A DNA stretch of 64,000 nt, taken from positions 96,001 to 160,000 of the forward strand of contig JBMNIW010000004.1 in the NCBI GenBank assembly GCA_050951325.1. Direction: 5' to 3'. Shown here piece by piece: positions 4,620 through 63,083 of this stretch; position 1 is the first letter of the stretch, and every line of letters begins with the position of its first letter. A program made the position numbers and the translations under genes. This stretch comes from Clostridia bacterium. GTDB lineage: Bacteria; Bacillota; Clostridia; UBA1212; DUPL01. The notes under the pieces were generated by a model. That model saw only the letters and a program-made list of their open reading frames with translations, had not been told where the DNA came from and searched no databases.

Positions 4620-6095
4620 TCATTTTTGTGTAACAAGGCCTACTGCCCATTTCCATCTGTCAATTATTTTACGTCTTTCATCCTTCGTCATTTCCGGCAC
4701 AAACTTTCTGTCTACCTTGTATTTCTGTCTTATCTCATCCTTTGATTCAAAGAACCCAACCGTAAGACCCGCAAGCAAAGCAGCACCAAAACCGGTGGAT
4801 TCCGTCATCTTCGGCCTTACAATCTCCATATTTGTTATATCTGCCTGGAACTGCATGAGGAAGTTGTTGCTTGTAGCTCCTCCGTCCACCTTGAGACTTG
4901 ATATGTCCACCTTGGCATCCTGTTTAATGACTTCAATAACATCCCTACACTGGAATGCTATGGATTCAAGAGCGGCTCTTGCAATATGATACTTGTTCGT
5001 CCCCCTGGTTATGCCAAACATGGAGCCTCTTACATCCATGTTCCAATAAGGTGCACCCAGACCTGTAAATGCAGGAACAAAAACAACGCCCAAACTGTCC
5101 TTCACCTTTAAGGCAAACTCTTCCGACTGGGCTGAACTCTCAAGTATTCCAAGTTCGTCCCTAAGCCACTGGATTACAGAACCTCCTGTAAACACGCTGC
5201 CTTCAACAGCATACTTCCTCATGACGCCCACATCCGATGCAAGAGTTGTTATCATGCCGCTGTCGCTTTGTATAAACTCATCGCCTGTATTTACCAGCAA
5301 AAAGCATCCGGTTCCATAGGTGTTCTTCATATCGCCTTTTTCAAAACAATTCTGCCCAAACAAGGAGGATTGCTGGTCTCCGCTTAAGGCTGCAATAGGT
5401 ATCGTATGGCCAAAACAAGTCGTTTCTCCAAATACATGCCCTGAAGGGCAAACCTCCGGAAGCATGCTTTTTGGAATATCAAACTCTGAAAGAAGCCTTT
5501 CATCCCACTTCATGTCCCTTATATTAAAAAGCATTGTCCTCGAGGCATTTGTACTATCTGTCATGTGCTTTTTTGTGAAATTGTACAAAAGCCAGGAATC
5601 TACAGTACCAAAAAGCAAATCTCCGTTTTTGGCCCTGTCATACGCACCTTCCACATTGTCAAGAATCCACTTAACCTTTGTGGCGGAGAAATATGCGTCA
5701 ACTATCAAACCTGTATTCTCTTTTATATAACCAAAAAGCTCCTTGCGTCTCTTAATCTCGTCACACATGGAGGCACTTCGCCTGCACTGCCATACAATGG
5801 CATTGTAGACAGGCTCTCCAGTGTATCTGTCCCAGACGATTGCAGTCTCCCTTTGGTTCGTAATGCCAATTGCACAAATTTCCGCAGCAGAAATTCCCGC
5901 CTCTTTTATAACATCATTAATTACACTGAAGGACGACTCATATACTTCCTTAGGATCATGCTCAACCCATCCCGCATTCGGATATATTTGAGTCAGCTCT
6001 TTCTGCTTCTTGTGAATCAGATTCAAGTCTCTATCAAAAAGAAGCGCCTTTGACGATGTGGTACCCTGGTCAAGACTAATGACATACTTTTTCAA
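4620..6095 (-). CDS. glpK: Glycerol kinase
   Basis: DQGTTSS, GITNQRET, NAIVWQCRR, GDQQS, KNTYGTGCF and DGGAT motifs. Confidence 0.97.
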   Translation of the reverse strand: MKKYVISLDQGTTSSKALLFDRDLNLIHKKQKELTQIYPNAGWVEHDPKEVYESSFSVINDVIKEAGISAAEICAIGITNQRETAIVWDRYTGEPVYNAIVWQCRRSASMCDEIKRRKELFGYIKENTGLIVDAYFSATKVKWILDNVEGAYDRAKNGDLLFGTVDSWLLYNFTKKHMTDSTNASRTMLFNIRDMKWDERLLSEFDIPKSMLPEVCPSGHVFGETTCFGHTIPIAALSGDQQSSLFGQNCFEKGDMKNTYGTGCFLLVNTGDEFIQSDSGMITTLASDVGVMRKYAVEGSVFTGGSVIQWLRDELGILESSAQSEEFALKVKDSLGVVFVPAFTGLGAPYWNMDVRGSMFGITRGTNKYHIARAALESIAFQCRDVIEVIKQDAKVDISSLKVDGGATSNNFLMQFQADITNMEIVRPKMTESTGFGAALLAGLTVGFFESKDEIRQKYKVDRKFVPEMTKDERRKIIDRWKWAVGLVTQK

Positions 6096-56374: not shown

Positions 56375-56579
56375 ATCACAATTAAAAAAAATATACAACA
56401 TAAATTTTTCTATAAAAAAAAGAGGTGGATTTCCACCTCAATTCGATAGTTTGACACTTGCTCACATATCCGATTTTCAGAAAAGCTCATATTATGACAA
56501 TGTCATTAACTTAAGAGATCGCAATACATGTTTTGTTGCGATCTCTTAGTTTATTTCAAATCTTAAATTAACTGGCACG
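56375..56579 (+). repeat. Left copy of the 205-bp direct repeat (long TSD of the IS1634-family element)
   Basis: Identical to 58616..58821 apart from one extra G at 58626. Confidence 0.93.
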
Positions 56580-56678
56580 CCCTAGTTTAACAGTTAATCT
56601 TTCAATTTAAATTGCATAAATGCCCTAAATAACGCCAATTTGGCGCTTTTTTTATGTCAAATAATTTACATTTTTATG

Positions 56679-56707
56679 TTGACAATAGTTGACAATTATG
56701 ATATAAT
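56679..56707 (+). promoter_or_regulatory. Consensus sigmaA promoter of the IS1634 transposase
   Basis: TTGACA-17nt-TATAAT with TG extension. Confidence 0.8.
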
Positions 56708-56738
56708 GTAACCGACTATTTCTTGGAGGTGCTGTTGG

Positions 56739-58512
56739 ATGTTTCTGAGAATAACCAAGCAGAAGAACGGCAGGATTAATCTATGTTTCGCTGAAGGATA
56801 TCGTGACCCTGTCACAAAAAAAGTTAAACATAGGATTATCGAGAATCTGGGCTATTTGGATGAATATATTGATCGTTACGAGGATCCAATAGCGCATTTT
56901 AAAGAGATTGCACGCATTCGCACCCAGGAACTTAACGAGGAAAAAAGGAAAAAGGAAATATTTCTGGGTACTATTTCTGAAGGCGAGACCATGGAAGTGA
57001 ACGAAGATTCCTTGCAGCACATGGGATTCCTTCCTCTAAGCTCAATTTACCATCAGTTAAAAATCGACAAATTCATTATCAATCGTCAACGAAGCCTGTC
57101 CATGGATTATTCGCTAAACGATGTTATGCAATTGTTGGTGTATACAAGGATTCTATCTCCAGGATCCAAGATAGACAGTTACAGACAAAAAGAACGTATG
57201 GCTAAAGATTTCAAATGTGATTGGTATGATGTTTATCGTGCATTGGACTATTTTGCATCTTTTCGAGATGACCTTCTCCTCCATCTTCACGAGCAGGTCA
57301 GAATCAACTATCAACGTAAAACTGATGTTGTTTTTTACGATGTCACAAACTTTTACTTTGAGATTGACAAAGAGGATGAATTTCGTCGCAAGGGTTATTG
57401 CAAGCACAATACACGAAATCCGCTAGTGCAAATGGGACTGCTTCTTGATTCTGATGCTATTCCAATAGCGTATCAGTTATTTAAAGGGAACACCCATGAC
57501 AGTCAGACAATGATGCCGCTGTTGCATAAAATACGTGCCAGTTATGGACTGGGTAGAATAATTACCGTAGCAGACAAAGGATTGAATAGCGGAGACAACA
57601 TCGCATTTCTCATGGCCAAAGGAGATGGATTCATATTCTCTCAGAAAATACGGGGAGCTTCCAAAGATCTGCAAGACTATGTTTTTGATCAGTCAGGATA
57701 TGTAGATGTGCACGGGATAGTAAAACATGCTGATGCATGGAACGAAAGGAATGGCAACCAAGACAGCGGATTGTTCCGCATGAAATCACGACTATATCCA
57801 CAGGAATTCTGGGTAACTCATGCAGATGATGTCAAACGCAAAATACCGTTGGATGTAAAACAGATTGTATGTTACAACGAGCTTTATGCAAGACGCCAGA
57901 AGCACAAGAGGGCTGAACTTATTGCCAAGGCCAAAAGAATCATAGAAAATCCCAAACGCTATGATAAGAGTGAGGCAGGTGGGGCATTACGATATGTAAA
58001 AAACATTGAATATGACCCGGAAACTGGTGAGTACATTAAAACCAGGCGTTTACCCAGCCTGGATGAAGACAGGATTGCGGAAGACGAAAAGTATGATGGC
58101 TACTATGCAATCATTACAAGCGAACTGGATATGCCAGACCATGATGTCGTCAAAGCATATCACGGTCTTTGGGAGATAGAACATAGTTTCAGGATTACTA
58201 AAAGCGATATTGAAGCCAGACCTGTTAATGTTACACTCGAGCAAAGGATAGATGCCCACTTTCTTACATGTTTTATAGCATTGCTAGTCTTAAGGCTTTT
58301 GTGTAAACGACTGGACGGAAAGTATGCCCCTGAACAGGTACTCAAATCTTTGAGAAATTATCAGGTTTGTTGGATTAAGGACAATGTATACAAGGCAACC
58401 TACTATGACCGAAATACTAAAAGATTTGGGTGAGGATTTGAATTTGAGACTGGATAGACGCTTCCTAAAAGCAGGCGACATCAGGCAACTGATTGCAGAT
58501 ACCAAAAAGTGA
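56739..58512 (+). pseudogene. IS1634-family DDE transposase with an apparent +1 frameshift near 58410
   Basis: FYDVTNFYFE, VADKG, YHGLWEIEHSFR. Removing one C at 58410 extends the frame YYD-EILKDLGEDL...DTKK to a stop at 58512. Confidence 0.8.
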
Positions 58513-58615
58513 CCATAAATACACAACATTTTTCTGAAATAAATAAAACCTCACAAACCCACTAATTACAAGGGTTTATGGAGGTTTTTTCTAAATTCTA
58601 ACTGTTAAACTCAAG

Positions 58616-58821
58616 ATCACAATTAGAAAAAAATATACAACATAAATTTTTCTATAAAAAAAAGAGGTGGATTTCCACCTCAATTCGATAGTTTGACACT
58701 TGCTCACATATCCGATTTTCAGAAAAGCTCATATTATGACAATGTCATTAACTTAAGAGATCGCAATACATGTTTTGTTGCGATCTCTTAGTTTATTTCA
58801 AATCTTAAATTAACTGGCACG
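58616..58821 (+). repeat. Right copy of the long direct repeat
   Basis: Matches 56375..56579. Confidence 0.93.
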
Positions 58822-60448
58822 GTATTTTATTGATCCTTCTAATACACTTTATCTTTGTCTTGTTACAGATTTAAAAAATGACATAAAAAAGTTAAGTTAT
58901 AGTTTATAACAATAACTCTTGCTATGTAAATATTAGGAATATGGAAAACTAGGAGTTTCTTTTAATATTATTAAAGAACCTCTTGCTTTTTGCATTTTTG
59001 TGTCTGTTGAAAGAACGCCCTTTTCTTACAGGTATAAGTTCTGATTGTATTTCTTTTATGACTTTCTCGAATAAGATTCTGCGTTCAACATCACTATCAG
59101 TTGCTACAAATCCTATTAGTTCATCCCTCATTACTCCGATTGCGAAGTTTTTATTTATAGTCATAACATGTTTGTATTTGTTAAGTTTTCCCTCACGCTT
59201 TAACGATTCTTCGGCATCTCGAATAACATCTTGGATAATGTTACACAGATATACTGTCGCATATATATCTTGTTCTATAAGTAACGGTTTTGTTCCTGTA
59301 AAATTTTCGATTTCTAATTTGTTTTTTAAGGTATCATATACTGTTTCTATTGCCCATCGCATAAAATACAAGTCCGAAATTTCTTTGGTATTGAACTCTT
59401 CTTGGCTTAAATTAGTAGCAAGATACTCAGTTTCACCGGAAGATAAATGCACGCGTACAAATCTTACAAACATAGAACCAACAGTACGTAGTTTCTCTGC
59501 AAACTTTGTATTTCGATAAGGGTTAATACGGGTCTGATCAAATTTTATCTCAATAATTTCATCATCGGAAGTCATAGACGATTGCTCTCTTTTGAACTGC
59601 GAAGAGCTTAACCTCATGAGAAATTTTTGTCCCTTCTCGAATCGATTAAGCATATTTTCAATTGAAGGATAACCTCTATCAAACAAAACGATAAAGGCTT
59701 TGTCTTCAATAATTTCAGCAATGTTATCAATATTCTTCTCGGCAGCAGCACGTTCGTCAAAATTATTCCTGTTAATAGATATATCTAAAATAAATTCATT
59801 ACACACATCGTATATACAAGAAAGACCAATCTGTGCAGTAGGCTTTGCAGATGGCACCGAGGAGTTACCATATAATTCTAGAGTTTCTTTATTTGTGGGT
59901 ATAGTAATATTACTACCGTCAACAGCGAGAACTAAATAATTCTTAATTGTTCTTGCTGTCTCTTCGTTGTAGAAATTCTTTAAATGAAAGCTATTCAAAG
60001 CGAGAAAAGCTTTGGGATCAAGCTTTAAACGTTGTTTTAAATACGCTACTTTTGATACAGTTTTGTCATCTTGTTTCATCTTTAAATATCTCCTGATTTC
60101 AAGTTTCAATGAAAAACCAACTCGAGTAATGGTAGATAGAATGATATCAAACATAGTTAACTTCCTTTTTCTTGTGAAGTCAGTGCTTTTTTGCCTATAT
60201 GTTTTTTTGAACTCTTCTTTCTGCGCATACTCCAGGTCTTTTTCTAATCTAATCTTAGATAATAATTTTAACATCTTATACTCCCCATTTCTAGCAAAAT
60301 CGAGAGTATTAAATAATATTTAAAATTTAACAACTCTGTATTATTTTATCATATTTGTTTTAAAATGTAAAACTGAAAATGTGATAAAAAGACCCTAACC
60401 GAATAAGTTAGGGTTCTTTAAAACGAGTTTCTTAAGTTAATGACATTG
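58740..60448 (-). mobile_element. IS4-family insertion sequence with 10-bp TSD
   Basis: TIR CAATGTCATTAACTTAAGA at both ends; TSD CATATTATGA at 58730..58739 and 60449..60458. Confidence 0.92.
58949..60274 (-). CDS. IS4-family DDE transposase
   Basis: LAVDGS, FDRGYPS and YFMRWAIETVYDTLK (YREK motif). Confidence 0.93.
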   Translation of the reverse strand: MLKLLSKIRLEKDLEYAQKEEFKKTYRQKSTDFTRKRKLTMFDIILSTITRVGFSLKLEIRRYLKMKQDDKTVSKVAYLKQRLKLDPKAFLALNSFHLKNFYNEETARTIKNYLVLAVDGSNITIPTNKETLELYGNSSVPSAKPTAQIGLSCIYDVCNEFILDISINRNNFDERAAAEKNIDNIAEIIEDKAFIVLFDRGYPSIENMLNRFEKGQKFLMRLSSSQFKREQSSMTSDDEIIEIKFDQTRINPYRNTKFAEKLRTVGSMFVRFVRVHLSSGETEYLATNLSQEEFNTKEISDLYFMRWAIETVYDTLKNKLEIENFTGTKPLLIEQDIYATVYLCNIIQDVIRDAEESLKREGKLNKYKHVMTINKNFAIGVMRDELIGFVATDSDVERRILFEKVIKEIQSELIPVRKGRSFNRHKNAKSKRFFNNIKRNS

Positions 60449-60652
60449 CATATTATGAGCTTTTCTGAAAATCGGATATGTGAGCAAGTGTCAAACTATC
60501 GAGTTATATTTTTTAGTTTACAATCTTTTTATACGTTAATGTTATGATTATTCACAAGAATTCATAGAAAATCTGTCTTAAGTATATTGACATTCATTGG
60601 TGTAGTGTGATAAATATATGTGTGAAAAAGTAATTAAATTTATCGAGGAGGT

Positions 60653-63048: not shown

Positions 63049-63083
63049 TACAGTCTCACGCAACATTGTTGCGTGAGACTGTA
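63049..63083. repeat. Perfect 35-bp palindrome
   Basis: TACAGTCTCACGCAACA-T-TGTTGCGTGAGACTGTA. Confidence 0.85.

Follow-up and report, generated by a model that had tools for sequence, protein, structure and literature searches.

How does an insertion sequence (IS) come to lie exactly in the middle of a long perfect palindrome? This question is raised by a 64,000-nt stretch of DNA from a Clostridia bacterium (assembly GCA_050951325.1, contig JBMNIW010000004.1, positions 96,001 to 160,000; this whole stretch is referred to here as the window), in which an IS4-type element at 58740..60448 on the minus strand separates two arms that are exact reverse complements of each other. An earlier note, made from the letters of the window alone, had offered two interpretations: either the transposase had chosen a dyad-symmetric target, or the second arm had been made by copying one flank during transposition or repair. 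The reading favored here, to which we assign a probability of roughly 0.6, is that the 99-bp palindrome already existed and that an element of the IS4 subgroup entered it by an ordinary staggered cut centred on its axis. The locus would then probably represent a curious insertion site and not a new mechanism.

The element and its palindromic target

Deletion by script of the IS and of one copy of the repeat that flanks it restored a longest palindrome of 49 nt + 1 nt + 49 nt, just as the earlier note had placed it. The left arm (58685..58733) and the right arm (60454..60502) are exactly complementary, and the single unpaired centre T at 58734 is duplicated at 60453. The flanking repeat is a 10-bp target-site duplication, CATATTATGA, present as exact direct copies flush against the left (58730..58739) and right (60449..60458) ends of the element. 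Its midpoint, 58734.5, lies 0.5 nt off the palindrome axis, the minimum for a duplication of even length in a palindrome of odd length; the duplication does straddle the centre, as had been proposed. An inverted-repeat listing gives the same arms as 57 nt and 96% when the 10-bp repeat is counted in. For 49 successive complementary positions the chance probability is ~1e-29 per centre, and a chance origin of this complementarity is excluded. By comparison, the longest arms among the other perfect close inverted repeats in the window (21 pairs listed) are 17 nt.

As single-stranded DNA, the restored site is predicted to form one hairpin of about -57.5 kcal/mol (DNA parameters). Its symmetry ends sharply at the outer arm boundaries: no larger decayed palindrome was found past the 49-nt arms, the outer-flank score being reached by 217 of 300 shuffles, and a direct repeat outside the arms was likewise not found, in agreement with the earlier description. 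Perfect arms with such sharp edges suggest a recent discrete event, for example a strand-switching inverted duplication, or a discrete element. Long spacerless palindromes are unstable in bacteria, and a literature search for IS insertions into long perfect palindromes or cruciforms retrieved no comparable case. It is the target, 99 bp long, perfect and spacerless, that is the unusual feature of this locus.

The palindrome is intergenic and sits in a chromosomal core context, upstream of an open reading frame (ORF) of 73 aa and of rpoB, rpoC, fusA and tuf. Past the right arm there is unique sequence with a promoter-like site, followed by ORFs. A terminator-like hairpin with a T run at 58664..58681 (minus strand), 3 nt outside the left arm, is host sequence and does not belong to the palindrome. 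Across the whole window, 0 matches to Rfam were obtained at the gathering score. Another perfect palindrome without a spacer, its 17-nt arms flanking a 1-nt centre, is found at 63049-63083 between two minus-strand genes; it is unrelated in sequence to the 99-bp palindrome.

The IS that occupies this site is 1709 bp long and apparently intact. It is bounded by terminal inverted repeats (TIRs) of 19 nt at 58740..58758 (plus strand) and 60430..60448 (minus strand), which are 100% complementary to each other, and its sole long ORF is a transposase gene encoding 441 aa at 58949..60274 on the minus strand. The encoded protein is an IS4-family transposase, as judged from matches above cut-off to Pfam DDE_Tnp_1 (PF01609; E=2.3e-15, 57.3 bits vs a cut-off of 23) and to the NCBIfam model for IS4 family transposases (NF033592; 150.2 bits vs a cut-off of 115), and from a complete Y(2)R(3)E(6)K block (the YREK motif), which a regular expression matched once, at aa 303.

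Subgroup IS4 has been described as having the end pattern -AATR--------WTW, a duplication of 10-13 bp and a typical size of 1400-1650 bp (PMC2266710; this and the two other papers cited below, PMC1525189 and PMC5678879, are cited from excerpts). The window element resembles this subgroup in having a single-ORF transposase of the Asp-Asp-Glu (DDE) type with the full YREK motif, ends that fit the pattern by eye (AATG at positions 2-5 and TTA at positions 14-16) and a 10-bp duplication, which also agrees with the duplication length of roughly one helix turn that characterises the IS4 family as a whole (PMC2266710). At 1709 bp, compared to 1426 bp for IS4 itself, it falls outside the 1400-1650 bp range (PMC2266710), exceeding it by ~60 bp, although this range is descriptive and represents no strict criterion. 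The IS4 of E. coli K-12, the type element of the subgroup, is flanked by a 12-bp duplication and has a similar TIR, which agrees with that of the window element at 13 of 19 positions by eye; its transposase InsG is 19% identical to the window transposase (E=2e-11). Placed by its end pattern, the length of its duplication and the pairwise comparison with InsG, the element appears to be an undescribed yet ordinary member of the IS4 subgroup.

Two terminator-like hairpins are located just within the ends of the element, at 58753-58791 (plus strand) and 60392-60414 (minus strand). The left one has a stem of 16 pairs and overlaps the TIR, while the right one precedes the transposase gene; these hairpins may protect the element against read-through transcription. 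In addition, a weak promoter-like site (9/12) at 58715-58742 on the minus strand spans the junction between the arm and the left tip of the IS and is directed outward, and this site is found again at 56473-56500.

Insertion sites of elements with the same ends

A genome scan with the 18-nt TIR yielded at least 125 stretches, and 124 loci (L001-L124) were compared; all counts of relatives given here are among the matches listed. Stretches with the exact 18-nt TIR were found in Clostridia, Bacilli, Desulfobacterota, Gammaproteobacteria, Bacteroidota and others. These included 49 paired ends, 46 of them unique and with usable flanks. A duplication, taken as readable if it was 8-12 bp long, had no more than 2 mismatches and was flush with the TIR tip, could be read directly against the CAATG tip in 32 of the 46 elements and was absent in 14; its commonest length was 10 bp (23/32). 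Because the cleavage point in these relatives is at the CAATG tip, the palindrome arms lie outside the transposon; the earlier note had already stated that they are not part of the TIR.

These relatives are diverse. At the 10 TIR-sharing loci that gave a transposase hit, identity to the window protein is 27-48%. Of the 32 elements with a readable duplication, 30 are <500 bp, the size of miniature inverted-repeat transposable elements (MITEs). Most carriers of the 18-nt TIR are such MITE-sized elements of ~77-390 bp with mutually unrelated interiors, and the exact conservation of the end sequence across such divergent elements and many phyla is striking. The best intact relative transposase (41% over 438 aa) is encoded by a full-length element at locus L065, which also provided the only alignment of at least 40 nt among the 124 loci (73.6% over 106 nt). 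None of the 124 fetched loci contained the interior, the arms or the flanks of the window IS.

To describe the position of insertions relative to hairpins, a site was called centred if no more than 1.5 nt separated the midpoint of the duplication from the axis of a hairpin with a perfect stem of ≥7 bp and a loop of ≤12 nt; all flank positions in the same loci served as controls. Under this definition 4 of 32 sites (L041, L044, L077 and L086) are centred, compared to 72 of 13818 control positions (0.52%; binomial p=2.4e-5). With loops of up to 30 nt, which adds L065, the count is 5 of 32 vs 152 of 13818 (1.1%; p=2.5e-5). Since insertions survive in intergenic DNA, which is also enriched in hairpins, a conditional test considered only sites with a stem within 40 nt. 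Here 4 of 10 sites were centred with loops of at most 12 nt (p about 1e-3) and 5 of 13 with loops of at most 30 nt (p about 3e-4), vs about 5% expected in both cases. Several of the centred targets look like terminators. In a post hoc split, Clostridia and Bacilli contribute 10 of the 32 sites, including 4 of the 5 that are centred. Taken together, these data lend modest support to an insertion bias towards dyad axes but not to a strict requirement for them, and sequence symmetry and extruded structure are indistinguishable here as its basis.

Base preferences at the relatives' targets are weak, with A first in 11 and T last in 12 of 19 sites; a strong sequence consensus was rejected for these 19 sites. 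A repeated target element was not seen in the flanks of 137 TIR ends either: the outside flanks are unlike one another, with only 3 pairs reaching 28 of 40 identities, 2 of which represent one place fetched twice. Within two metagenome-assembled genomes (MAGs), separate small elements have similar G+C-rich, hairpin-bearing outside flanks (L057 and L069, and L059 and L104); either the target is locally repeated in these genomes or the repeat unit is larger than its TIR-bounded part.

Targeting of symmetric DNA has precedents that differ from the window site. For IS4 itself a weakly symmetric target motif has reportedly been noted; a literature search for this motif found no paper. In the E. coli K-12 IS4 copy (L125:4060-4110, 5500-5545), the restored target has AAA and TTT 20 nt apart, an anecdotal observation from one copy only. 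IS1272 of S. aureus undergoes 'inverted-repeat-replacing' transposition, in which new insertions occur at stem-loops of differing sequence with arms of 9-12 bp (PMC5678879). These targets are like the window site in suggesting recognition of structure or symmetry, but the target repeat of IS1272 is lost by replacement and no duplication arises, whereas the window element keeps its target whole with a 10-bp duplication (PMC5678879). A palindromic-target-motif model, as outlined in excerpt, predicts symmetric cuts such as those of the window IS and of 4 to 5 of the 32 relatives, but for short degenerate motifs of ~14 bp and not for a perfect palindrome of 99 bp.

Origin of the second arm

In the favored course of events, a 49+1+49 palindrome would already have been present between genes, upstream of the rpoB-rpoC cluster. 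The IS4-type element would have inserted by ordinary cut-and-paste, its two ends attacking the target strands 10 bp apart, and gap repair would have generated the 10-bp direct repeat. The duplication is centred on the axis; a two-fold symmetric complex of transposase and ends may favor dyad-symmetric targets, so that centring would reflect target choice; the palindrome centre is also AT-rich, and any preferred half-site would be available on both sides of the axis. With the arms separated by 1.7 kb, the site would have become more stable than the empty palindrome, and this stabilisation may explain why the palindrome is seen only split. An IS1634-family element later inserted 82 bp inside the left end, duplicating 205 bp that include the left arm. 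The repeat fits such a target, in that both copies are direct, each with the same unpaired centre T, and the 10-mer plus one neighboring base makes up a 5+1+5 palindrome core, for which the chance is 1.1e-3 in an unrelated target.

A number of observations weigh against this reading. One would not expect a bacterial chromosome to harbor a spacerless perfect palindrome of 99 bp, and the favored reading does not account for how it arose. The matches listed include neither an empty palindrome nor another copy of this particular IS, and because of this the description of the palindrome as 'pre-existing' rests on parsimony. In the relatives, 27 to 28 of the 32 sites lack an axial hairpin, and those that show centring belong to a distant set, with transposases only 27-48% identical and 30 of 32 elements MITE-sized. 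The loop setting of up to 30 nt was picked after L065 had been seen and, like the split by phylum, is a post hoc choice; moreover, the controls took all flank positions, intergenic or not, which the conditional test corrects only partly. Finally, the duplication in the window departs from the weak base preferences of its relatives.

The palindrome could alternatively be a dedicated or repeated target element, or the arms could travel with the IS, so that every copy of the IS would be found between the same 49-nt arms. There is precedent for such an arrangement: some members of subgroup IS4 have strongly conserved target arms on both the left and the right side (PMC2266710), and ISRm22, which has a transposase of the same broad family as the window IS, is located in repetitive extragenic palindromic (REP) sequences at 10 of 10 copies (PMC1525189). 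Together with IS1397, ISKpn1, IS621 and ISPpu9, it likewise represents an IS within a palindromic extragenic sequence (PMC1525189). The abrupt ends of the arms are also what a discrete element would show. However, the conserved target of subgroup IS4 elements is a short motif and not one long perfect palindrome, and REP sequences are short, imperfect and highly repeated and house all copies of their IS, whereas the window palindrome is 99 bp, perfect and unrepeated in the window (PMC1525189). The arm occurs in the 64-kb window only once more, in a copy within the duplication made by the IS1634-type element, and neither the plasmid and phage collections nor the 124 fetched loci contain a match to it. 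Furthermore, the arms have no flanking duplication, the outside flanks of the 137 TIR-sharing ends are dissimilar and the relatives are cleaved at the CAATG tip, all of which makes a dedicated target unlikely. That the palindrome is a mobile foldback MITE is not supported, as there is no flanking direct repeat and no other copy in the window, plasmids, phages or fetched loci. That the arm is a relic of the neighboring IS1634-type TIR, to which it has a 13-nt likeness that 97 of 500 and 187 of 500 shuffles also reached, was rejected. A bolder possibility, which seems distinctly improbable, is that the transposase of this IS4-subgroup lineage recognises structure instead of sequence, as an extruded cruciform or a single-strand hairpin at the fork, and inserts at any hairpin tip, such that it would do best on long perfect palindromes, which would be both disarmed and preserved by the insertion, or that the 99-bp palindrome is an undescribed discrete element that serves as a specific landing pad.

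The second interpretation of the earlier note, that the inverted arm was made in the course of transposition or afterwards, whether through hairpin opening or template switching, as the note had suggested, or through fold-back priming, was not supported; the choice of a dyad-symmetric target gained modest, indirect support from the centring on the axis here and in 4 to 5 of the 32 relatives. Perfect identity of the arms and a sharp outer boundary would suit recent copying, and no empty site was seen among the matches listed. The copies of the repeat are nevertheless direct and share the centre base, whereas exact inverted copying of the left flank should yield a right flank shifted by one base, with the complement of the observed base at its centre. 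Copying from beyond the repeat would reduce the palindromic nature of the repeat to a coincidence of ~1e-3, the mirror image ends after 49 nt on the right flank, and perfect inverted flanks of >10 nt were found in 0 of the 32 TIR-sharing insertions with a readable duplication. Hairpin formation by IS4-family transposases, as in Tn5 and Tn10, takes place at the ends of the transposon and not in the flanking DNA, which also counts against an arm made in this way. De novo formation of the arm is therefore very improbable. That the right arm is an artefact of assembly or fold-back is the least probable of the explanations considered. Repeats such as a multi-copy IS are often misassembled, and the view taken here depends on the assembly, but if the assembly had doubled back through the IS, the right flank would be an exact mirror of the left one, without a break. 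The observed mirror is out of register at the repeat and halts at 49 nt, to be followed by unique sequence, the promoter-like site and the downstream ORFs, and a proper 10-bp duplication is present, as in real insertions of the IS4 family. A fold-back artefact was thus rejected on the register and the extent of the mirror.

A second insertion and the distribution of the element

The left end of the IS4-type element was itself the target of a later insertion. An IS1634-family element of 2036 bp is located at 56580..58615 on the plus strand, with imperfect TIRs that have a 13-nt exact core and a transposase gene for 564 aa at 56739..58433 (plus strand), the product of which matches NF033559 with 372 bits vs a cut-off of 100. 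Its YREK block lacks the R, with Y-x2-L instead of Y-x2-R, and a YREK without R has been described for the IS1634 family (PMC2266710). The element is flanked by a long target duplication, the first copy of which lies at 56375..56579 and the second, with one extra G at 58626, at 58616..58821; the exact direct repeat is 195 nt (56385-56579 = 58627-58821), extending to 205/206 nt. Direct repeats of 8-514 bp have been reported for IS1634 and IS1549 (PMC2266710), and the nested element is like these in its 205-bp repeat and its match to the family model above cut-off (PMC2266710). It is unlike them in its Clostridia-like host, as opposed to Mycoplasma or Mycobacterium, and in having the end of another IS as its target.

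In the first copy of the duplication, the terminator hairpin is repeated along with the left arm at 56443-56491, the 10-bp repeat at 56488-56497 and, at 56498-56579, the initial 82 nt of the IS4-type element. The earlier note had overlooked this recurrence, at 56443-56579, of everything from the left arm to nt 82 of the IS, and both the TIR and the arm have a third occurrence near 56463-56516; for the TIR 19-mer this amounts to 3 matches within the 64-kb window vs 0.07 expected. Because the 205-bp duplication holds 82 nt of the IS4-type element, the IS4-type element was inserted first and the IS1634-family element second, 82 bp inside its left end. The extra copy of the arm is a product of this duplication and is therefore uninformative on the origin of the palindrome. 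As a result of the second insertion, two identical left IS ends now oppose one right end (56498-60448), and the outer pair of ends could in principle mobilise the IS1634-type element as a composite of 3951 bp.

A protein search with the transposase of the IS4-type element returned 870 proteins at E ≤ 1e-20 among 7219 candidates, and the best 120 of the 870 are considered here. One protein cluster, with 39 member sequences on contigs of up to 2320 bp, is identical to the 441-aa transposase. Further matches are a cluster with 80% identity and a fragment of 307 aa with 98%, the latter from a Clostridia bacterium MAG, and the remaining matches among these best 120 of 870 show no more than 53% identity. 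The DNA of the IS had no match in the plasmid set, where the best protein match to the transposase was 32.8% identical (204 records, all <60%).

The locus described here is a single insertion site that can be explained by known transposition chemistry. If the centring of the duplication reflects target choice, it would be a clear addition to the few DDE insertion sequences that target dyad-symmetric DNA. With a very widely shared 18-nt end and many MITE-sized derivatives, the lineage would also be convenient for separating recognition of symmetry from recognition of extruded structure. Taking into consideration that the 99-bp spacerless perfect palindrome survives in this bacterial chromosome only in split form, the site bears on how such palindromes originate and persist.

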